Origin: Thermodesulfobacteriota bacterium
GTDB taxonomy: Bacteria > Desulfobacterota > Desulfobaccia > Desulfobaccales > 0-14-0-80-60-11
DNA length: 64,000 nucleotides
Assembly (NCBI GenBank): GCA_049322355.1
Contig: JBMORG010000001.1
Location: forward strand, 114,337 to 178,336
Reading direction: 5' to 3'
In this document: piece by piece, positions 3,034 to 48,320 of the stretch
Layout: each line of letters starts with the position of its first letter
Position numbering within the stretch: position 1 is the first letter of the stretch
Notes under the pieces: model-generated
Database searches by the model: none
What the model was told of the DNA's origin: nothing
The model's input: only the letters and a program-made list of their open reading frames with translations
Program-made: the position numbers and the translations under genes

Positions 3034-3909
3034 CTATTTAATGAGACCATACTTCTGCATTACCTGGCGAAGTTTATTTTCATTGGCCTCGGACATGGCC
3101 CACAGGGGTTGGCGCACTTCGCCGGTGATTTTGCCCATCAGCTTCAGGGCGGTTTTGACCGGGGCGGGGTTGGTCTCATAGAACATGGCCTCCATCAGGG
3201 GCCACATCTTATAGTGGAGTTCCCTTGCCTTCGCCAGGTCCCCGGCGAAAAAGGCGTTGCACATGCCCGCCATGTCGGAAGGCGTCACGTTGGAGACCAC
3301 CGAAATCACGCCCTGGCCTCCCACGCACAGCAGCGGAAAAGTGGTGAAATCATCTCCGGAGAGGACGGTGATCTTATCGCCGCACAACTCCAGGGTCTTG
3401 GCCCCCTGCTTCAGATCCCCGGTGGCGTCTTTAAGTCCCACGATATTGGGGATAGCCGCCAGCCGGGCCATAGTTTCCGGCAGCAGGTTGACACTGGTGC
3501 GGCCTGGCACGTTATAGACCACGATGGGAATTTTGGTCTTGGACGTTACGGTTTTATAGTGCTGGAAGAGGCCTTCCTGGGTCGGTTTGTTGTAGTAAGG
3601 AGTGATCATCAGGGCCGCGTCGGCGCCGGCGGCCTGGGCATGCTGGGTGAGTTCCAGGGATTCGGCGGTACTGTTGGAGCCGGACCCGGCGATCACGGGG
3701 ACCCGTTTTTTCACCTGGTCGATGCAGGTTTCCACTACCCGTTTGTGCTCGGCGTGAGACAGAACGGGGGATTCGCCGGTGGTGCCGCAGGGCACGATGC
3801 CATGAATGCCGCCCTGGATCTGCAACTCGATGAGTTTCCGGTAGGCCTCTTCGTCGAATTGGCCGTTCTTGAAAGGAGTAACGATGGCGGTGATGGCTCC
3901 CTTGAACAT
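3034..3909 (-). CDS. dapA: 4-hydroxy-tetrahydrodipicolinate synthase
   Basis: 291 aa. AIVTPFKNG..., GIVPCGTTGESPVLS and YNVPGRT match DapA motifs. GAGGAGG RBS. Confidence 0.93.
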   Translation of the reverse strand: MFKGAITAIVTPFKNGQFDEEAYRKLIELQIQGGIHGIVPCGTTGESPVLSHAEHKRVVETCIDQVKKRVPVIAGSGSNSTAESLELTQHAQAAGADAALMITPYYNKPTQEGLFQHYKTVTSKTKIPIVVYNVPGRTSVNLLPETMARLAAIPNIVGLKDATGDLKQGAKTLELCGDKITVLSGDDFTTFPLLCVGGQGVISVVSNVTPSDMAGMCNAFFAGDLAKARELHYKMWPLMEAMFYETNPAPVKTALKLMGKITGEVRQPLWAMSEANENKLRQVMQKYGLIK

Positions 3910-3921
3910 ATTGCTACCTCC

Positions 3922-4758
3922 TCACTTGAGTTCGTCGACCCACAGTTCGCCCTGGTAGGCCACCAGGGCATCGCCTTCCAGGAAGACTTCGTTGAAGGTC
4001 TCTCCTTGGGGCGTAAAATATATGATCAACGCTTCGCCGCCCCGGGTGTGGACGGTGACGGGAGAGCGGGCCTGCCCCAGCCGGGCGGCAAGCAGGGCCG
4101 AAGCCACGGCGCCGGTGCCGCAGGCCAGGGTTTCGTCCTCGACCCCCCGTTCGTAGGTGCGAATTCTTATGGCCTGGGGGCCTTCAACCTTAACGAAGTT
4201 AACATTGGTGCCCGCCGGCTGAAACAGCGGGTGAAAACGCACCGCCCGGCCCCATTGGGTGACGGGAGCCTGTTCCAAGTCATTTACCGGTACCGCCACA
4301 TGGGGCACACCCACCTTCATAAAATGGCCCAGAAGGGTTTCACTTTCCAGAGGGATGGTTTGGTCCAGGCGAAAATCACCCACCCCGGTCATGAGCAGCT
4401 TTACCCGGCGGCCCTTGACTTCGGCTTTGATGGTGCCCGCCAGGGTTTCAAAGGACAATTCAGGGGGGGCAATGCCTTTTAAAACCGCAAACCGGGCGGC
4501 GCAGCGCCCGCCGTTGCCGCACATTTCGGGTTCGGAGCCGTCGGCGTTATAAAACTGCCAGCGGAAATTGGCGGTGGGGCAGCCCTCGATGAGGATGAGG
4601 CCGTCGGCCCCCGCGCCCAACTGGCGATGGCAGACCCGGCGGGCAAACTCCGGCTGCTCGGCCTTGGGGATAAAGCCCTGCCGGTGGTCGATGAGCACAA
4701 AATCGTTGCCCCCGCCGTGCATTTTATAAAAGGGGAGGCGTTTCGTTTCTCTATTCAT
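3922..4758 (-). CDS. dapF: diaminopimelate epimerase
   Basis: 278 aa. FYKMHGGGNDFVLID, the catalytic-Cys contexts EMCGNGGRC and ACGTGAVA. Confidence 0.92.
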   Translation of the reverse strand: MNRETKRLPFYKMHGGGNDFVLIDHRQGFIPKAEQPEFARRVCHRQLGAGADGLILIEGCPTANFRWQFYNADGSEPEMCGNGGRCAARFAVLKGIAPPELSFETLAGTIKAEVKGRRVKLLMTGVGDFRLDQTIPLESETLLGHFMKVGVPHVAVPVNDLEQAPVTQWGRAVRFHPLFQPAGTNVNFVKVEGPQAIRIRTYERGVEDETLACGTGAVASALLAARLGQARSPVTVHTRGGEALIIYFTPQGETFNEVFLEGDALVAYQGELWVDELK

Positions 4759-6365: not shown

Positions 6366-7586
6366 TCAATAAGTTACCGCCGCCACCTCCGACGGCATAC
6401 TCTCGTTGGCTCTGGGAGAGTCGTCCACCGCGGTCACGTAGTAATGGTAAGTCCGGCCCCGGGTAACCTGGGAGTCTAAGAAATAGGGCTTCTTGACCAG
6501 CTCCGGGGTGAGCCGGCTATATTTTTCCTCCCCAGAGAAACGCCGGTAGAGCCGGTAACCGGCCACGTCGGGTTCCGGACTCAGCTCCCACCGCAATTCC
6601 ACCCCTTGGGAGGTGGGCACCGCCAGGAAATTCAACACCGGCGGCGGCGGGGTGCGCTTCTCCGGCATGGCCATCCGGGTGGGTGAATCAAGGCTGGCCA
6701 GCAGGTCGCCGCCTAACCGTCGCACCGCATTAACTTTATAATTATATTCCACATTGTTAAGCACTGCCAGGTCCTGGAATTGATTCTGGAGCACCGGCGC
6801 CGGTGTGACGCGAATCCAGGCCCCTAGGCCCGAGCGGCGGAAGACCAGATAACCCGCCAGGTCCCGGACCGGCGACCCGTCTTGCAGCAGAGTCACCGGG
6901 GCCCAGGACAGAGATACGACTTTATCGCCGGGCACGGCCTTGAAGTCTCCGGGGGTCCGGGGCAGCCAGCCCCAGGCATGGCTCAAGGTCTGGGACCAGC
7001 CCCCATTGTAACCATCTTGGTTATAGGCCGCCACCCGATAATAATAGCGCTGGTCCGGCACCAACTCCTGGTCCCGGAACAGCATGGCCTCCCCCTGGAC
7101 CTCCCCCTGCTGGGGATAGGCCAGGTCGATGTCGGCATATAAGCTAAAATCCGAAGACGCTAATGCTTCAGGGGTTAGCCCCTTGAGGGCAGCCCGATAC
7201 ACCCGGCAGCCTTGGACCTGAGTAAGAGGCTGGCCCAAAAGGTTTTCCCGGGGCAACAGCCAGCTCAAAACCAGGGCGTTGGCTTCCTGGTTCAATTGCA
7301 AATTACGTACCGGCGCCGGCAATACCCGGTCAGGGGCATGCGGCGTCATCCGCTTGCCGCAAGCGGTTGTAGTTAACAGAAGGCAGATGATGAAGAGGAA
7401 TAAGTATTTTGAAGAGAAGGCCGGGGAATGGCTAGTTGCGGTTCTCAGTAGAAAATACCCTGGGAATCGGGAAGTCGGCGAACCCGACCACCCCCCCAAG
7501 AACCCTGAACCCGGAACCCAGAACCTTCCCCTGGCCCCTGACCCCTGGCCCCTGACTCCTGACCCCTGCTTAAATCTCCTGCTCAT
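6366..7586 (-). CDS. fibronectin-type-III repeat lipoprotein (start uncertain)
   Basis: Signal/lipobox-like KYLFLFIICLLLTTTAC, then 3-4 FN3-like units (LSWLLP..YRVYR..YYYRVAAYN; VSLSWAP..YLVFRR..YNYKVNAV; VELRWE..YRLYRR..YHYYVTAVDD). The first ~60 codons of the tracked ORF are translated low-complexity repeat DNA (GSGVRGQGSGARG) and overlap the argH 3' end. Confidence 0.65.
   Translation of the reverse strand: MSRRFKQGSGVRGQGSGARGRFWVPGSGFLGGWSGSPTSRFPGYFLLRTATSHSPAFSSKYLFLFIICLLLTTTACGKRMTPHAPDRVLPAPVRNLQLNQEANALVLSWLLPRENLLGQPLTQVQGCRVYRAALKGLTPEALASSDFSLYADIDLAYPQQGEVQGEAMLFRDQELVPDQRYYYRVAAYNQDGYNGGWSQTLSHAWGWLPRTPGDFKAVPGDKVVSLSWAPVTLLQDGSPVRDLAGYLVFRRSGLGAWIRVTPAPVLQNQFQDLAVLNNVEYNYKVNAVRRLGGDLLASLDSPTRMAMPEKRTPPPPVLNFLAVPTSQGVELRWELSPEPDVAGYRLYRRFSGEEKYSRLTPELVKKPYFLDSQVTRGRTYHYYVTAVDDSPRANESMPSEVAAVTY
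7495..7570. repeat. low-complexity (cctga/cccctg)n repeat
   Basis: aaccctgaacccggaacccagaaccttcccctggcccctgacccctggcccctgactcctgacccctgc, immediately downstream of the argH stop. It translates to the GSGVRGQG-type 'N-terminus' of ORF 6366..7586. Confidence 0.8.
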
Positions 7587-37682: not shown

Positions 37683-38020
37683 GTGCCCAAGCAGAGCTTG
37701 GCCCAATAATTGCGTTCCCAAGTGCAACTTGGGAACGAGAGAAAGAGCTTGGGCCAAAATTAGCGTTCCCAAGCCAGAGCTTGGGAACGAAGGGAAAACT
37801 CGAGGTGGCGGGCGGGGACGCCCGCCCCACCAAGGGTTCGCAGCCAGACAAAAAACCATGCAGGAGCTTAGGAACGAGAAAAAAGGGCGACCCAGCGGGT
37901 CGCCCCTACTTTTGGAGGCTGGGGGTGTGGGGCGGGGCAGGGGTCCCCACGCGAGACGTCTGCGCAGTTAGCCCCTTGCCTTTCCCCAAAAAACCAAAGG
38001 GTGCGCCAGGCGCACCCTTT
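37683..38020. repeat. cluster of heterogeneous hairpin words (families B, C and others)
   Basis: gtgcccaagcagagcttggcc; cgttcccaagtgcaacttgggaacg; cgttcccaagccagagcttgggaacg; ggcgggcggggacgcccgcccc; gggcgacccagcgggtcgccc; aaagggtgcgccaggcgcacccttt. All are short perfect stems placed in tandem. Confidence 0.8.
37985..38020 (-). terminator. rho-independent terminator after nfnB
   Basis: On the minus strand: aaagggtgcgcc-t-ggcgcacccttt followed by ggttttttgggg, starting 27 nt after the nfnB stop. Confidence 0.8.
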
Positions 38021-43025: not shown

Positions 43026-43697
43026 ATGGTTATAGCGGAATCGAAACCCCTGGCGGAAATCCTGGATATGGTCAAGGATTTCAAAAAGATCGTGGTGGCC
43101 GGCTGCAAAGGCTGCGTGACCGTATGTTGTGCGGGAGGCGAAAAAGAGGTGGCCATCCTGGCCTCCGAACTCCGCATCGCCCGCAAAGCCGCCGGGAATG
43201 ACTTGGAAGTAAAGGAATACACCTGTGAACGGCAGTGCGATCCCGAATATATCGAACCGCTGGACGACCTGGTGGACGGTGTCGATGCCGTAGTCTCCAT
43301 CGCCTGCAGCGTCGGACCCCAGTATGTCGCAGCCCGTTATCCCTATCTCCGGGTTTATCCGGGCCTCAATACCACCAGCATCGGCGGGGCTACGGAGCAC
43401 GGGGTCTGGAAAGAGTTCTGCCAGGCCTGCGGCAGCTGTATCATCGGCAATTTTGGCGGGCTGTGCCCCATTGCCCGCTGCGCCAAGCAACTTCTGAACG
43501 GGCCCTGCGGCGGCTCTTCCCAGGGCATCTGCGAAGTGGGCAAGGGCTCCATCCCCTGCATCTGGCAGCTGATTTACGATCGCCTGAAAAATCTCGGGGA
43601 GCTCCACAAGCTCACCGAGGTGCAGCTCTACAAAAATTGGTCTACCAGCCGGGACGGCGGGTTACGCACTACGATACGGGAGGAATTGAAACAATGA
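43026..43697 (+). CDS. metV: methylenetetrahydrofolate reductase C-terminal-domain (Cys-rich) subunit
   Basis: 223 aa. Multiple Cys clusters (CKGCVTVCC, CQACGSC) and the hallmark CPIARCAKQLLNGPCGG. AGGAGG RBS. Its stop overlaps the metF start (ATGA). Confidence 0.8.
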   Translation: MVIAESKPLAEILDMVKDFKKIVVAGCKGCVTVCCAGGEKEVAILASELRIARKAAGNDLEVKEYTCERQCDPEYIEPLDDLVDGVDAVVSIACSVGPQYVAARYPYLRVYPGLNTTSIGGATEHGVWKEFCQACGSCIIGNFGGLCPIARCAKQLLNGPCGGSSQGICEVGKGSIPCIWQLIYDRLKNLGELHKLTEVQLYKNWSTSRDGGLRTTIREELKQ

Positions 43698-44638
43698 CCG
43701 CCGAATACTCCGCGGGAAGCAAACTGGAAAAAATCTTCAAGAGCGGCCAGAAGGCTGTCACCGGCGAATGCGGTCCTCCCCGGGGCTGTGATGCCGAACA
43801 TTTCAGGCATAAGGCGTCTTTCTTAAAACCCGTCGTGGACGCAGTCAACGTCACCGACAACCAAACCGCGGTGGTGCGTTTCTGCTCCATGGCCGCGTCC
43901 AAGATCCTCCTGGAAATGGGCGTGGAGCCGGTGATGCAGATGGTAACCCGGGATATGAACCGCATCGGGCTCCAGAGCAACATGTTGGGCGCCGCGGCTT
44001 TGGGCATCAAGAACCTCTTGTGCCTCACCGGCGACCACCAGTCCTTTGGCGACCATCCCCAGGCCAAGAACGTGCACGACCTTGATTCCGTCATGTTGGC
44101 CCACACCTTAAAGACCATGCGGGATGAGGGCAAGATGATCAGCGGCACCGAACTCCAGGGCCGGCCCCGGATGTTCATCGGCGCCGCGGCCAACCCCTTC
44201 GCCGACCCCCAGGAATTCCGGGTGGTGCGCATGGGCAAGAAGATCGCCGCGGGCGTCCAGTTCATCCAGACCCAGTGCATCTATAACATGGAGCGCTTCC
44301 GGAAGTTCATGGAAATGGCCAATGATATGGGCCTTACTGAGAAATGCTACATCATGGCCGGCATCACCCCGCTGAAATCCGTGGGTATGGCCAACTACAT
44401 GAAGAAATTCGTCCCCGGCCTGGATGTGCCCGATTCTTACATCACTCGCCTGAAAGGCGTGCCCAAGGACAAGGTGGCCGCGGAAGGCATCAAGATCGCG
44501 GTGGAACAGATTCAGGAATGCCTGGAAATGAAGGGCATCTCCGGCATCCACCTCATGGCCATCGAATGGGAGGAACGGGCCCCGGAGATCATCGAAGCCG
44601 CCGGCCTCCTGCCCCGGCCCAAGGTGGAAGCGGACTAA
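43694..44638 (+). CDS. metF: methylenetetrahydrofolate reductase, acetogen-type small MetF
   Basis: Trimmed to the ATG at 43694 (MTAEYSAGSKLEKIF...). VNVTDNQTAVVR, LCLTGDH, VQFIQTQCIYN. The tracked upstream extension from 43235 is out of frame with, and overlaps, metV. Confidence 0.85.
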   Translation: MTAEYSAGSKLEKIFKSGQKAVTGECGPPRGCDAEHFRHKASFLKPVVDAVNVTDNQTAVVRFCSMAASKILLEMGVEPVMQMVTRDMNRIGLQSNMLGAAALGIKNLLCLTGDHQSFGDHPQAKNVHDLDSVMLAHTLKTMRDEGKMISGTELQGRPRMFIGAAANPFADPQEFRVVRMGKKIAAGVQFIQTQCIYNMERFRKFMEMANDMGLTEKCYIMAGITPLKSVGMANYMKKFVPGLDVPDSYITRLKGVPKDKVAAEGIKIAVEQIQECLEMKGISGIHLMAIEWEERAPEIIEAAGLLPRPKVEAD

Positions 44639-44686
44639 ACGCAATAAAACTTTGGTGGGGCGGGCCTCCATGCCGCCACCTCTTTC

Positions 44687-44718
44687 AAAGCCCGGTCCGG
44701 GAGGATCGGGCTTTTTTT
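44687..44718 (+). terminator. rho-independent terminator after metF
   Basis: Stem agcccggtcc/ggatcgggct, loop ggga, then a T7 run. Confidence 0.85.
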
Positions 44719-44800
44719 GCGATGAGGTTGACCAAGGTATCCGAATAAAATATAATGACCATAGTAATTTGACCATAATCAATTCTATAAGGAAAGCACC

Positions 44801-45025
44801 ATGGACTCTTTATCGGTGTCAAAATTTAAAGCTACCTGCCTGGCGGTGGTGGAAGAAGTGGCAAGATCCAAAAAGCCGGTGATCATTACCAAGCGGGGCA
44901 AGCCCGTCGCCGAGTTGATCCCTTATGAAGCGGAAACCGAGCCCGTGCCCTTGAAAGATACGGTGGCGTTCATGGGTGATATCATCTCTCCGGTGGCCCC
45001 GGAGGATTGGGAAGCACTCCAATGA
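44801..45025 (+). CDS. type II antitoxin, Phd/YefM family
   Basis: 74 aa. SVSKFKATCLAVVEEVARSKKPVIITKRGKPVAELIPY is the typical Phd/YefM N-terminus. Its stop overlaps the toxin start (ATGA). Confidence 0.85.
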   Translation: MDSLSVSKFKATCLAVVEEVARSKKPVIITKRGKPVAELIPYEAETEPVPLKDTVAFMGDIISPVAPEDWEALQ

Positions 45026-45411
45026 GGCCGGTTCTCCTGGATACTCATGTCTGGATTTGGCTTAGCATCGGCAATCTGCACGCCCTTTCCGCCCAGGCCC
45101 AACTGTCTTTAACTGGCGGAACCCGCTGGATTTCGGCCATCTCCTGCTGGGAACTGGCCAAGCTGGTGGAGCGGCACCGCATCGGTTTCACCATTCCCAC
45201 CTTGGACTGGATGCGCCGTTCCTTGAGCGAAAATCGTATCCGCATCGCGGAGTTGACCCCGGAAATCGCAGTGGAGAGCACCAGTCTCCAAGGGTTTCAC
45301 CGGGACCCGGCGGACCAGATCATTGTTGCCACCTCCCGGCTGTTGGGGATACCTTTGGTGACTGCGGATCAGAGAATTATCCAGTTCGGCGACGTGGAGA
45401 CCATCCACTAG
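45022..45411 (+). CDS. vapC: type II toxin, PIN-domain VapC family
   Basis: MRPVLLDTHVWIWL..., ISCWELAKL, HRDPADQIIVATS..PLVTADQRI carry the PIN acidic residues. Confidence 0.85.
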   Translation: MRPVLLDTHVWIWLSIGNLHALSAQAQLSLTGGTRWISAISCWELAKLVERHRIGFTIPTLDWMRRSLSENRIRIAELTPEIAVESTSLQGFHRDPADQIIVATSRLLGIPLVTADQRIIQFGDVETIH

Positions 45412-45476
45412 CGGGGCGGGCTTGGCCTCCCCGCTGCATTCGTAGGGGAAAGAGCCTCCTGCCCCGCCACTGTTCA

Positions 45477-45507
45477 AAAGCCTGGTTCGGTAGGATCAGG
45501 CTTTTTT
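45477..45507 (+). terminator. rho-independent terminator after vapC (paralogous to 44687-44718)
   Basis: Stem agcctggttc/ggatcaggct, loop ggta, then T6. It differs from the metF terminator by a compensatory C-G to T-A pair. Confidence 0.85.
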
Positions 45508-45627
45508 ATTGGGACGATTTGTTGTAGAGTGGAAACACTGAAGGTCACCAAGACCTCGGGCTGCGGCCACGAAGGCCGGCTAAATCATAAAAACTCAAAC
45601 CAATTTTCATTTTGGGAGAATTTCATA

Positions 45628-47520
45628 ATGAATATGAAGACCCCCAAGCAATCCTCTCCGGCCCATTCCATCCACCCCGACACCCTGGCTATAATTGATA
45701 AAGCCCGAACCGAAGGCCTGGAAATTATCTGGGACCGGGCCGCAGCCCAGGAGCCCCAGTGCGGTTTCTGTGAGTTGGGGCTCTCCTGCCGCATCTGTGT
45801 CATGGGCCCCTGCCGCATCGATCCCTTCGGCGACGGCCCCCAGCGGGGCATCTGCGGCGCCGACGCCCACATTATGGTGGCCCGGAACCTGGGGCGCATG
45901 GTGGCCGCAGGCGCGGCCTCCCACTCCGATCACGGCCGGGACCTGGTGGAGACGCTTTTAGCCGTGGGTGAAGGCAGGGCGCCGGGATTTGGCATTGCGG
46001 ATCCCGCCAAGCTGGACCTTCTGGCCGCGGAGTTTGGGGTGCCGGCAGAGCTTCCCACCCTGGCCAAGGCCAAGGAACTGGCCCTGGCCATGATGGAAGA
46101 ATACGGCATCAAGAAGGGTTATCTCACCTTCACCCGGCGGCTGCCCGCAGTGCGCCTGGAGAAATGGCGGGCCCTGGGGATCGAGCCCCGGGGGGTGGAC
46201 TGGGAAGTCACCGAAATGATGCACCGCACCCACATGGGGGTGGACAACGACGCGGTCAACCTCCTGGTCCAGGCCCTGCGGGTGGCCCTGGCGGACGGCT
46301 GGGGCGGCTCCATGATTGCCACCGAGATCTCCGACGTCCTGTTCGGCACTCCCAAACCTACGGCCTCCCAGGTAAATCTGGCGGTGCTCAAAGAGGACCA
46401 GGTGAATATCATCCTCCACGGCCACTCCCCCCTGGTCTCCGAAATGGTGGCCCGGGCGGCCCAGGACCCGAACCTCTTGGCCCGGGCCCAGGAACTGGGG
46501 GCCGGCGGCATCAACCTGGCGGGCCTGTGTTGTACCGGCAACGAGGTCCTCATGCGCCGGGGCATTCCCATGGCCGGCAACCATTTGGTGCAGGAGTTGG
46601 CCCTGATTACCGGCGCGGTGGAGGCCATGGTGGTGGATTACCAGTGCATCTTGCCATCGCTTGGCGATCTGGCTGCCTGCTACCACACCAAATTTTACAC
46701 TACCGCGGCCAAGGCCAAATTCCCCGGGGCTACGCACCTGCCGTTCTCTCCGGAAAACGGCGAGGCCCTGGGCCGGGAGCTGGTGGTCCAGGCGGTGGAG
46801 AATTTCGCCCGGCGCCGGCCGGAGCGGGTGCTCATCCCCGGCGCCCCTGTGTCCCAGGTGAGCGGCTTTTCCGTGGAGATTATTAAGGCAGCCCTGGGCG
46901 GCACCTGGGACCCCCTGCTGGATGCCATCAAGGCCGGGCAAATCCGGGGCGCGGTGGGTGTGGTGGGCTGCAACAACCCCAAGGTGCAGCATGACTACGG
47001 TCACACCACCCTGACCCGGAAGCTTATTGAGAACGACATCCTGGTGGTGGACACCGGCTGCGCTGCCGTGGCCCACGCCAAGGCGGGCTTCAAACAGGCG
47101 GAGGCCGCAAGCCTGGCAGGCCCGGGCTTAAAGGCCGTATGCCAGGCCCTGGGGATTCCGCCGGTCCTGCACATGGGGTCGTGTGTGGACAATACCCGTA
47201 TCATCAACCTGGCCGCGGCCCTGGCCCAGGCCCTGGGAGTGGACCTGGATCAACTGCCCCTGGCCGCAGCAGCCCCGGAGTGGTACTCGGAGAAAGCCGC
47301 CACCATCGCCTGCTATGCCGTGGCCAGCGGCGTCTATACGGTCCTGGGGGTGGTGCCCCCGGTCCTGGGGTCCAGCGCGGTCACCGATCTGCTCCTCAAC
47401 GGCCTGGAAGCGCATGTAGGGGCTACCTTTGCAGTGGAGACCGACCCCGCCAAGGCCGCGGACCTAATCATCGCACATGTGGAGGGTAAGCGTAGGGCGT
47501 TGGGTCTGGAGGCGCGGTAA
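45628..47520 (+). CDS. cooS: anaerobic Ni-Fe carbon monoxide dehydrogenase catalytic subunit
   Basis: Start trimmed to the ATG at 45628 (GGGAGAA RBS). CGFCELGLSCRICVMGPCRI (B/D-cluster Cys), HSDHGR, HGHSP, GLCCTGNE, GSCVDN (C-cluster ligand contexts). Confidence 0.9.
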   Translation: MNMKTPKQSSPAHSIHPDTLAIIDKARTEGLEIIWDRAAAQEPQCGFCELGLSCRICVMGPCRIDPFGDGPQRGICGADAHIMVARNLGRMVAAGAASHSDHGRDLVETLLAVGEGRAPGFGIADPAKLDLLAAEFGVPAELPTLAKAKELALAMMEEYGIKKGYLTFTRRLPAVRLEKWRALGIEPRGVDWEVTEMMHRTHMGVDNDAVNLLVQALRVALADGWGGSMIATEISDVLFGTPKPTASQVNLAVLKEDQVNIILHGHSPLVSEMVARAAQDPNLLARAQELGAGGINLAGLCCTGNEVLMRRGIPMAGNHLVQELALITGAVEAMVVDYQCILPSLGDLAACYHTKFYTTAAKAKFPGATHLPFSPENGEALGRELVVQAVENFARRRPERVLIPGAPVSQVSGFSVEIIKAALGGTWDPLLDAIKAGQIRGAVGVVGCNNPKVQHDYGHTTLTRKLIENDILVVDTGCAAVAHAKAGFKQAEAASLAGPGLKAVCQALGIPPVLHMGSCVDNTRIINLAAALAQALGVDLDQLPLAAAAPEWYSEKAATIACYAVASGVYTVLGVVPPVLGSSAVTDLLLNGLEAHVGATFAVETDPAKAADLIIAHVEGKRRALGLEAR

Positions 47521-47585
47521 GGTTTAAAATTGCAGGGTGTGCAATCCACACCCTGCAATTGTAGCACTTGACAGAGGACAAAGAG

Positions 47586-48320
47586 ATGGAAGACGAGATC
47601 AAAGTTCGTTTTGAGGAACTGGACAAACGCCTGGCCAGCGCGGAAAAACGCTTTGACGACATTAAATGGTATTTCGGCGGGGTGACCGGCGTATTCATGA
47701 TCGTCTTCAGTTTGTTGACCATCATATTGAGCTGGAACTACAAAGGGGAAAGAGATTCCCTCAGGGAATTCCAAAAGGATATCAAAACCGAATTGGGCAA
47801 GGTTGAATCCCCCCCTGAAATCGAATTACTTGGCACAAATGGCTCAGCTCTGGCTAACCAGGAAATGGAGGTTACTTTTGGGAGGGAATTGTCGGTTCGT
47901 TCTAGTTGGGATCCGGAGGGAAAAGAACAAAAAGGTAACATTATTATTTTTATAAATTTTTTTCTTAGAAATGCTGGAAACGCTTCAAGTGGACCATTAA
48001 ACTTAAAATTATATACCAATGAACCAATAAAATTTAAAGATCCCACAAAAAGTACAGATGAACCAAAATTCCAATATGAAACATATTTACTCCCTCAATA
48101 CTTTGTCCCGAACGAATTGCCTGGTCGGTATTCATGTGATTTGAGATATGGCTGGACAATGGATACTGCTACTATTCCACCAAATGGCAAGTATCCCGCC
48201 TTGATTAAAGTTTTTTATGGAAAAGGGAAAATCGCCCAGGCGCATTTTACGATCGTTATTACTGAAAAGCAGCGCATGGCGCCCCCGGAGCTCCGCATTG
48301 GGCCCCCGGAGCTCCGCTGA
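47586..48320 (+). CDS. hypothetical single-pass membrane protein
   Basis: Cytoplasmic coiled-coil N-terminus, a TM helix (YFGGVTGVFMIVFSLLTIILSW), then a ~190 aa beta-rich ectodomain. Strongly AT-rich (15/60 GC at 47941-48000). The C-terminus PPELRIGPPELR is encoded by a 16-nt direct repeat. The TTG at 47568 is an alternative start. Confidence 0.55.
   Translation: MEDEIKVRFEELDKRLASAEKRFDDIKWYFGGVTGVFMIVFSLLTIILSWNYKGERDSLREFQKDIKTELGKVESPPEIELLGTNGSALANQEMEVTFGRELSVRSSWDPEGKEQKGNIIIFINFFLRNAGNASSGPLNLKLYTNEPIKFKDPTKSTDEPKFQYETYLLPQYFVPNELPGRYSCDLRYGWTMDTATIPPNGKYPALIKVFYGKGKIAQAHFTIVITEKQRMAPPELRIGPPELR

Follow-up and report, generated by a model that had tools for sequence, protein, structure and literature searches.

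A small operon of a Phd/YefM-type antitoxin gene and a PIN-domain toxin gene, here called vapB and vapC, lies between metF and cooS in a 64,000-nt stretch of contig JBMORG010000001.1 from a Thermodesulfobacteriota bacterium (the window, to which all coordinates refer unless a related locus is named by its L-number). The upstream neighbour encodes methylene-tetrahydrofolate (THF) reductase, the downstream one the catalytic subunit of anaerobic CO dehydrogenase, and the operon is bracketed by two copies of one and the same intrinsic terminator, T, which is that of metF. We consider it likely that vapBC entered the chromosome at this terminator, in the ancestor of a Desulfobaccales clade, by an insertion with long target duplication in which no mobility gene took part.

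Two copies of the metF terminator flank vapBC

Within positions 44000-46200, a repeat finder returned one long direct repeat, 44664-44717 and 45454-45507. In a gapped local alignment the two copies agree in 46 of 56 columns (score 54, as compared to 16.4 ± 2.4 and a maximum of 32 for shuffled sequences), which upholds the bracketing of vapBC described in a first-pass annotation of this DNA, where 45 of 56 identical positions had been counted. An independent assembly (L001, SRR32167786) is identical across 1335 bp, both copies included. Each copy folds as two hairpins followed by a T run, with -37.6 kcal/mol (z = -2.8) for the left copy and -56.7 kcal/mol (z = -4.4) for the right; the first hairpin (H1a and H1b, respectively) opens in both with the 9-mer GGGGCGGGC, at 44657 and 45413, and the second is T (T1 and T2). 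As a marker of repeats in the window the 9-mer itself was rejected, its 6 occurrences not being significant against 3.7 expected. The similarity of the copies reaches past the stems into the flanks, and in five genomes the flanking copies align locally with scores of 42-70 (null ∼16 ± 2). Judged by their sequences, the two modules are homologous rather than convergent, and represent paralogous copies of the metF 3' flank.

T1 starts 49 nt past the metF stop codon, and T2, with a 13-bp stem and 6 T, starts 65 nt past that of vapC (Table 1). An alignment of 25 copies from the Desulfobaccales clade gives the layout of T as AAGCCCGGTCC, a loop usually of 4 nt (5-6 nt in three loci), GGAYCGGGCTT and T7, with a stem that is 94% paired over all copies and loops that vary freely. 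From these predicted hairpins, T1 and T2 would both terminate transcription. The compensatory difference between the two stems that had been taken as a sign of structural maintenance is real, as columns 10 and 25 are C-G in 24 of the 25 copies and U-A only in T2, which additionally carries one C-G to U-G change; a single pair is, however, thin evidence for selection on structure, for which the overall pairing is the stronger argument. Covariation in T is altogether sparse, with one compensatory change and 10 G-C/G-U alternations, a value reached by 39 of 500 shuffles.

The pair is also alone in its surroundings. A 31-nt degenerate T pattern with up to three mismatches has two sites in the window, where none are expected, and a terminator covariance model scores T1 at 53.6 bits and T2 at 47.1 bits, with no further match in the window at E <= 1 except T1 on the reverse strand, in agreement with the earlier statement that no other terminator there resembles these two. 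Over 240 kb of window and relatives the same model finds T only at the metF locus, which identifies it as the intrinsic terminator of metF and not as a dispersed repeat; the concern that it might represent a genome-wide family found after many genes is thus not borne out in these 240 kb. In line with this, an orthologous T lies directly 3' of metF in every member of the clade, regardless of what follows downstream. We also scanned a genome collection with a 27-nt degenerate T pattern, too generic to count copies per genome, which yielded at least 119 loci from many phyla that were filtered by tblastn for metF: among the matches listed, metF stands directly upstream of T in all loci of Desulfobaccales type whose upstream flank is covered. 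Two loci are uninformative about the neighbour of T, namely L016, whose sequence piece has T at its very edge, and L049, a rearranged fragment rich in repetitive extragenic palindromic (REP) sequences and REP-associated tyrosine transposase (RAYT) genes that holds a cooS remnant and no metF. An Rfam scan of 44000-46000 gave a single sub-threshold match, of T1 to RF02278 (26 bits, with a gathering threshold of 50), which we took as generic terminator similarity.

Empty and filled sites in related genomes

Exact-protein look-ups, the scan of the genome collection and a search of metagenomes with VapC supplied about 25 related loci. The exact look-up of MetF returned no match and that of VapC one 1.3 kb contig only; MetF homologues at 84-96% identity come from metagenome-assembled genomes of Desulfobaccales. 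Two of the loci, the outgroup L032 and L072, show what the unoccupied site looks like: they read metF-T-D-cooS, with one T and no vapBC, where D is a conserved block with the consensus GTTGTA(G/T)(A/G)GTGG that in the window follows T2 and not T1. In a three-way alignment, the empty-site copy matches both flanks of vapBC, the left one as far as the T run and the right one from a point 5' of T into D and beyond; the left flank departs from the empty site just past TTTTTTT(AT), and the right flank runs on into D. For L128 against the empty L072, the identities are 61/75 between the left copy and the empty site, 62/75 between the right copy and the empty site and 57/75 between left and right, and the corresponding values for the window and the empty site of L078 are 52/66, 43/66 and 47/65. 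That one copy aligns to both flanks corroborates the proposal that vapBC was inserted at the metF terminator together with a duplication of the module.

The flanking repeats measure 54-56 nt in the window, 70-75 nt in L128 and 70 nt in L129. That of L128 starts in the coding end of metF and crosses the stop codon, and its right copy keeps a relic of the last codons and the stop. The duplication is found in most relatives with vapBC at this site (L004/5, L006, L031, L034, L128, L129, L132), so the converse pattern that had been named as speaking against it, relatives with vapBC at the same site and no duplication, is not the prevailing one. As T already stands between metVF and cooS in empty-site relatives, vapBC split no transcription unit, and the earlier view that it divides a metVF-cooS unit has to be abandoned. 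In L032, positions 3763-3837 between metF and cooS hold two different intrinsic terminators in tandem, the second of which is T.

Long direct repeats around distant PIN cassettes

We compared 56 metagenomic loci that encode distant homologues of the PIN toxin (43-68% identity) with 152 shifted intervals from the same loci as controls. Long direct repeats flank an antitoxin-toxin cassette of 0.65-0.9 kb in 12 of these loci vs. 3 of the controls (Fisher p = 1e-5), and with a stricter repeat score the numbers are 8/56 and 2/152. In the eight loci that were inspected closely, the duplicated target is either a tRNA gene or the 3' part of an adjacent gene, and duplication is directly evident where an adjacent gene is intact and a truncated copy of it lies on the far side. 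L171 carries a duplicate of a whole tRNA-Gly(CCC) gene (81/82 identical positions), whose copies at 3561-3632 and 4437-4508 flank a 795-nt antitoxin-PIN cassette without an integrase. The duplicated sequence comprises the final ∼70 nt of a 700-aa gene and a further 26 nt in L158 (94/96), the 176-179 nt 3' end of an opposite-strand gene in L161 (162/179), 120 nt ending at a stop codon in L162 (92/123), and the 3' end of a response-regulator gene in L205 (64/75). In L146, an unrelated contig, a MetV-like gene (methylene-THF reductase C-terminal domain) lies on the opposite strand, and 218 nt of its 3' end are duplicated (∼87% identity; 946-1164 and 2090-2307) around a vapBC homologue with 60% VapC identity. 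This is apparently a second, independent association of the toxin family with the end of a methylene-THF reductase gene, and the MetV-like neighbour is the only one shared when the distant vapBC loci are compared with all open reading frames (ORFs) of the window.

In most distant cassettes the right repeat begins 6-70 nt past the toxin stop codon (356 nt in L205, with a second cassette in between), so that these cassettes bring no terminator with them. Insertion with long target duplication at tRNA genes and gene 3' ends may thus be a general, mobility-gene-free entry route for solitary type II toxin-antitoxin cassettes, a generalisation that we put forward only tentatively. On this reading, a cassette would arrive with a promoter alone and place a duplicate of the target's end, including its terminator, on its far side.

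A probable single old gain and a hot spot downstream of metF

Genes for vapBC with a VapC identity of >=73% occur only at the metF locus, and the more distant homologues elsewhere have no T. In a metVF tree, the loci with vapBC span the whole ingroup, with L072, L002, L038, L098, L077 and L083, which lack it, nested inside; the vapBC gene tree is roughly congruent with it. This distribution and the congruence of the trees argue for one old gain followed by several losses, and the sequences point to vertical inheritance since that gain. The losses probably came about by recombination between the flanking repeats. Copies within one genome share features that set them apart from the orthologous copies; examples are the loop sequences (L031, L132 and the window), a REP in each copy (the window and L129) and the metF stop region (L128). 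Occasional gene conversion has probably taken place between such copies.

In the window, L128 and L129, vapBC is the sole cassette downstream of metF. Elsewhere it is accompanied by a gene for a 204-aa lipoprotein, a RAYT gene, a CBS-domain gene or a low-GC two-gene insert; L038 has a RAYT cassette and no vapBC, and cooS is absent downstream of metF in L002, L050, L078 and L098. L004, L006, L034 and L038 have three T copies each, one behind every cassette, and the repeated unit is T alone, T and D, H1 and T, or all three, over up to 95 columns; insertion beside T with duplication of T has therefore occurred repeatedly, with differing boundaries. The Pfam lists of genes within ±10 kb in L004 and L006 contain no integrase, only Y1_Tnp. 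The low-GC insert of L006 (12992-14688) sits between the third T copy and cooS, and its two ORFs of 154 and 411 aa have no Pfam match and look, by eye, like membrane proteins. L006 also has a BrnT/BrnA toxin-antitoxin pair, inserted at 6419-6923 beside the formate-THF ligase gene; the pair is present in L006/L007 and not in L004, and adds a further small addiction module to this gene neighbourhood.

A REP-type palindrome upstream of T

The module had been described as a two-hairpin terminator. This does not hold for the first hairpin, which is a REP-type palindrome that comes and goes among relatives. H1a is identical in 24 of 28 positions to the reverse complement of the canonical REP of the lineage at 37804-37831 (score 34 vs. 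a null of 10.5 ± 2.6). In H1b, the outer stem is formed by CGGGGCGGGC and GCCCCGCC, and the 3' half, GCCTCCTGCCCCGCCAC, is homologous to H1a. The window contains one canonical REP, which is detected with 4 substitutions, and two degenerate copies; a search with up to three mismatches gives no match in the window because the copy there has a 1-nt insertion. Canonical REPs are also present in L004, L006, L034, L038, L049 and L077, and copies of the consensus GGGGCGGGCGTCYCGCCCGCC flank a Y1_Tnp gene inside the metF locus of L004. The H1 that follows metF may be present, absent, doubled or replaced by another REP type, depending on the relative, and we read it, from these sequences, as a REP element, gained and lost between relatives, whose copies accumulate at a distance of 7-10 nt 5' of T.

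The right copy contains 33 extra bases between the 9-mer and CCTCC. These had been interpreted as an expansion inside the first hairpin, and the extra bases are indeed there; an insertion into the hairpin, however, is not supported, since the bases resemble, by eye, the vapC 3' flank of L129 and look like old flank sequence.

Several related observations concern the REP surroundings. Several relatives carry a Y1_Tnp gene of RAYT type (150-200 aa) in this locus downstream of metF or in pieces of the locus that have been rearranged (Table 1), and canonical REPs of the form GGGGCGGGCGTC(C/T)CGCCCGCC flank it in L004 and lie around it in L031 and L049; the 64 kb window has no RAYT homologue. The intergenic region of the canonical REP also harbours a second palindromic repeat, GCGTTCCCAAG-N5/6-CTTGGGAACG, at 37712-37737 and 37763-37789, with a third, partial copy near 37866-37876. 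The 13-mer GCCTCCTGCCCCG in the 3' arm of H1b (45454-45466) is identical to 44600-44612, the last metF codons, and the match lengthens to 15 nt with the metF sequence of L004. Perhaps the original duplication was longer and left this remnant; alternatively, the string may resemble the REP variant by chance.

Mode of insertion and alternative explanations

On the reading that we favour, a Phd/PIN cassette would have inserted a few bases past the T run of metF in the ancestor of the clade, bringing a sigma-70-type promoter, a probable operator and no terminator. Tens of bases of the target, comprising the metF end, the 3' untranslated region and T, would have been directly duplicated, with T1 still ending the metVF transcript and T2 ending that of vapBC. 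As T2 restores the original junction of T, D and the cooS leader, cooS would have stayed insulated from the vapBC operon. Vertical inheritance, gain and loss of REPs beside T and partial homogenisation of the copies by gene conversion would then have followed; some lineages would have lost vapBC by recombination between the repeats, and further cassettes would have entered at the same spot, each followed by a T copy. The insertion itself may have proceeded through RecA-type single-crossover integration of a circularised fragment, or through a template switch during replication.

A number of points weigh against this scenario. We know of no enzymology for long target duplications, and T, as a perfect palindrome with a short, variable spacer, has a layout that recombinase core sites share. 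There is no recognisable second T in L050, L130 and L131, which carry vapBC, and only half a T in L127. The empty L072 is in the clade and sister to L128, which has vapBC, in the metVF tree, so that it may be a revertant rather than a site that was never occupied; L032 is the only clear outgroup. A duplication as old as the clade requires, for similarity outside the selected stems, that gene conversion acted later, as we assume it did for the metF stop region in L128 and the 3' half of H1 in the window. Finally, T copies also follow cassettes that are not of the addiction type (the 204-aa lipoprotein gene and the RAYT gene), so that this mode of insertion is not specific to toxin-antitoxin genes.

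Among the alternatives, site-specific integration deserves the most attention, although we regard it as unlikely. Here, T or the metF 3' flank would be the att site of a recombinase acting in trans, T1 and T2 would be attL and attR, and the cassettes would be remnants of integrative elements, or satellites of such elements without an integrase, that entered possibly in tandem. The inverted repeat of 12-14 bp around a 4-nt spacer is indeed reminiscent of a recombinase core, arrays of cassettes that are each followed by a T copy resemble tandem accretion, duplicated ends of host genes are typical of att sites, and one distant cassette duplicates an entire tRNA-Gly gene. Nevertheless, the insert encodes no integrase, and the ±10 kb around it in L004 and L006 encode none either; the repeats range from 30 to ∼75 nt, with boundaries that vary between genomes and events; the loops differ between copies within a genome, where a shared crossover spacer would start identical; and related PIN cassettes use unrelated targets of 28-326 nt, which does not fit the specificity of a single recombinase.

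It is quite unlikely that no duplication accompanied the insertion and that an unrelated terminator of vapBC itself was later overwritten from T1 by conversion, or converged on the same generic sequence of a strong terminator. Conversion requires prior homology, D continues the empty-site sequence exactly past T2, the right copy of L128 holds a relic of the coding end and stop codon of metF, and the distance of 6-70 nt between toxin stop and right repeat leaves no space for a cassette's own terminator in the distant loci. What can be said for it is that the T stem is generic, with the 27-nt degenerate pattern occurring in more than 100 unrelated genomes, and that loops and flanks are alike within each of the window, L031 and L132, which means that the copies either exchange sequence or are young.

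REP/RAYT rearrangement, in which the Y1 transposase of the locus acts on H1, generates duplications and insertions and spreads the module linked to the REP, would draw on the REP-flanked Y1_Tnp genes between metF and cooS, or in fragments of the locus, in L004/5, L031, L038, L049 and L132, on the constant distance of 7-10 nt between H1 and T in many copies, and on the repeats of H1 and T (with or without D) in L006, L038, L129 and the window. RAYTs, however, act on REPs and REPINs and are not known to move cargo genes. As the repeat that flanks vapBC has T and no REP in L128, L004, L031 and L132, and as there is no RAYT homologue in the window, we find this explanation very unlikely. That T is a dispersed repeat of the whole genome, a "portable terminator" akin to miniature inverted-repeat transposable elements (MITEs) or REPs, which flanks vapBC by chance, is exceedingly improbable: H1 probably does belong to a dispersed REP family, but T has two copies in the 64 kb window, is restricted to the metF hot spot in the 240 kb and adjoins metF in the Desulfobaccales genomes among the matches listed, wherever their upstream flank is covered.

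Features of the locus

Gene calls were checked with Pfam and NCBIfam (Table 1). The antitoxin gene comes first and is joined to the toxin gene by an ATGA overlap. Residues D7, E44, D98 and D116 of the toxin are invariant across 11 homologues with identities down to 48%, and with the PIN active-site residues thus intact, the module is probably functional and its toxin probably toxic. The insert, 736 nt from 44718 to 45454, contains the promoter and vapBC and nothing else. The promoter-like site begins ∼9 nt past T1, and a block TTGAC(T/C)...TATAATGACCATAG is found upstream of vapB in L004, L006 and L128-L131 and, more diverged, in L132. Variants of an operator-like motif, TGAC(C/T)ATAGT and TTACTATAAT, recur in relatives; the repeated TGACCATA(G/A)T motif is probably the operator of the antitoxin, through which vapBC would be autoregulated. 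Further downstream, D may constitute the TAnnnT -10 region of the downstream gene; as a sigma-54 or standard sigma-70 promoter it was rejected, since spacing and GG/GC elements misfit by eye and a promoter scan is empty there.

Two other features follow cooS. A hairpin at 47527-47560, TTGCAGGGTGTG-CAATC-CACACCCTGCAA, has no T run, is unrelated to T and is followed by TTGTAGCACTTGACA. A 250-aa ORF at 47568-48320 has a GC content of 35-47% vs. ∼65% in its neighbours, no Pfam or NCBIfam match and a homologue 3' of cooS in L128, and is possibly another inserted gene.

Table 1. Coordinates of features in the window and of Y1_Tnp genes in related loci.
Feature	Sequence	Position	Strand	Basis
Canonical REP of the lineage, GGTGGGGCGGGCGTCCCCGCCCGCCACC; reference for H1	Window	37804-37831	-	Conforms to consensus GGGGCGGGCGTCYCGCCCGCC
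metV (small subunit / C-terminal-domain protein, methylene-THF reductase)	Window	43026-43697	+	Pfam PF12225, E 1e-33
metF (methylene-THF reductase; 3' flank is the duplicated target)	Window	43694-44638	+	Pfam PF02219, E 1e-38
H1a, degenerate REP-type palindrome GGTGGGGCGGGCCTCCATGCCGCCACC, first hairpin of left copy	Window	44654-44680	+	REP alignment, fold
T1, predicted metF intrinsic terminator (12-bp stem, GGGA loop, 7 T)	Window	44687-44718	+	Terminator scan, fold, covariance model
vapB promoter-like site TTGACC-17-TATAAT, left end of inserted cassette	Window	44728-44756	+	11/12 consensus matches
Direct repeat TGACCATAGT / TGACCATAAT, overlaps -10 box	Window	44756-44779	+	Read from sequence
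Phd/YefM-type antitoxin gene (vapB-like), 74 aa	Window	44801-45025	+	Pfam PF02604, NCBIfam TIGR01552
PIN-domain toxin gene (vapC-like), 129 aa	Window	45022-45411	+	Pfam PF01850
H1b, long composite hairpin, first hairpin of right copy	Window	45412-45470	+	Fold, alignment
T2, duplicated metF terminator, predicted now to end the vapBC operon	Window	45476-45507	+	Fold, covariance model
D, conserved block GATTTGTTGTAGAGTGG	Window	45516-45532	+	Identical or near-identical block after T in L032, L129, L072, L078, L083
cooS (anaerobic CO dehydrogenase catalytic subunit), downstream neighbour	Window	45628-47520	+	NCBIfam TIGR01702, 683 bits
Y1_Tnp gene (also in L005)	L004	12700-13340		
Y1_Tnp gene	L031	6568-7017		
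Y1_Tnp gene	L038	3980-4417		
Y1_Tnp gene	L049	3306-3755		
Y1_Tnp gene	L132	4648-5100		

Relation to known systems and significance

Most chromosomal toxin-antitoxin modules lie outside recognisable mobile elements, and their movement is poorly understood. Insertion with long target duplication was reportedly described for restriction-modification gene complexes by Nobusato and colleagues in 2000. In the cases analysed since, restriction-modification genes are inserted with target duplications of ∼30-400 bp and without mobility genes, the repeats, which frequently overlap host-gene 3' ends, correspond to one copy in the genome of a relative, and DNA breakage by the cargo, namely the double-strand breakage proposed as a property that restriction-modification systems share, has been suggested as the cause of the insertions (Furuta et al., 2010, PMC2853133; Mruk and Kobayashi, 2014, PMC3874152). 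The vapBC locus is similar in that it, too, represents an addiction-type module without a mobility gene, at the 3' end of a host gene, whose repeats match one empty-site copy. By the criteria of Furuta et al., the repeats in the window are longer than 30 bp and align to a single copy in empty relatives, and the insert is smaller than 20 kb and free of mobile-element genes. As for the remaining criterion, that the repeated sequence occur nowhere else in the genome, the DNA surveyed comprised the 64 kb of the window and 240 kb from relatives, over which the repeat is unique to the locus. In contrast to the restriction-modification insertions, the cargo here is a type II toxin-antitoxin pair with an RNase-type PIN toxin, the event is ancient and not a polymorphism between strains, and the duplicated target is a predicted functional terminator of which both copies are under selection. 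A PIN toxin acts as an RNase, which excludes DNA breakage by the cargo as a cause that all such insertions share. We found no precedent for toxin-antitoxin cassettes with long target duplication in the open-access literature, of which our coverage was incomplete.

Likenesses to three other kinds of system are more limited. H1 resembles the palindromes of REP/RAYT systems in being GC-rich and imperfect, in its GT(A/G)G head and in its place between stop codon and terminator, and the Y1_Tnp gene of relatives is flanked by REPs that conform to the same consensus; in contrast to such systems, only H1 and not T is REP-like, and the window has no RAYT gene. The arrays of short cassettes in one orientation, each followed by a similar hairpin repeat, recall the cassettes of integrons, and the promoter carried by vapBC recalls the toxin-antitoxin cassettes of chromosomal superintegrons, which bring their own; however, neither an integron integrase nor attI was seen near the locus in relatives (L004 and L006, ±10 kb), the repeat is the terminator of the host gene and not an attC site, and the arrays have only 2-3 units. 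With integrative elements that target tRNA genes or gene 3' ends, the locus shares repeats that reproduce the 3' end of a target gene and leave that gene intact, to which the duplicated tRNA-Gly of L171 may be added, but the inserts are only 0.65-0.9 kb long and without a recombinase, and repeats of very different length, at very different targets, occur within a single toxin family.

The locus thus provides a clean pair of empty and filled sites, in which a promoter-bearing vapBC would have acquired its terminator by duplicating that of the host. It marks the metF-cooS interval, in a region of Wood-Ljungdahl genes of Desulfobaccales, as a hot spot for the insertion of cassettes and for REP/RAYT activity. 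On the reading favoured here, it carries the phenomenon known from restriction-modification genes over to a module with a toxin that leaves DNA uncut, which argues against DNA breakage by the cargo as its cause, and the similar repeats that flank about one fifth of the related PIN cassettes hint at how such modules enter chromosomes.

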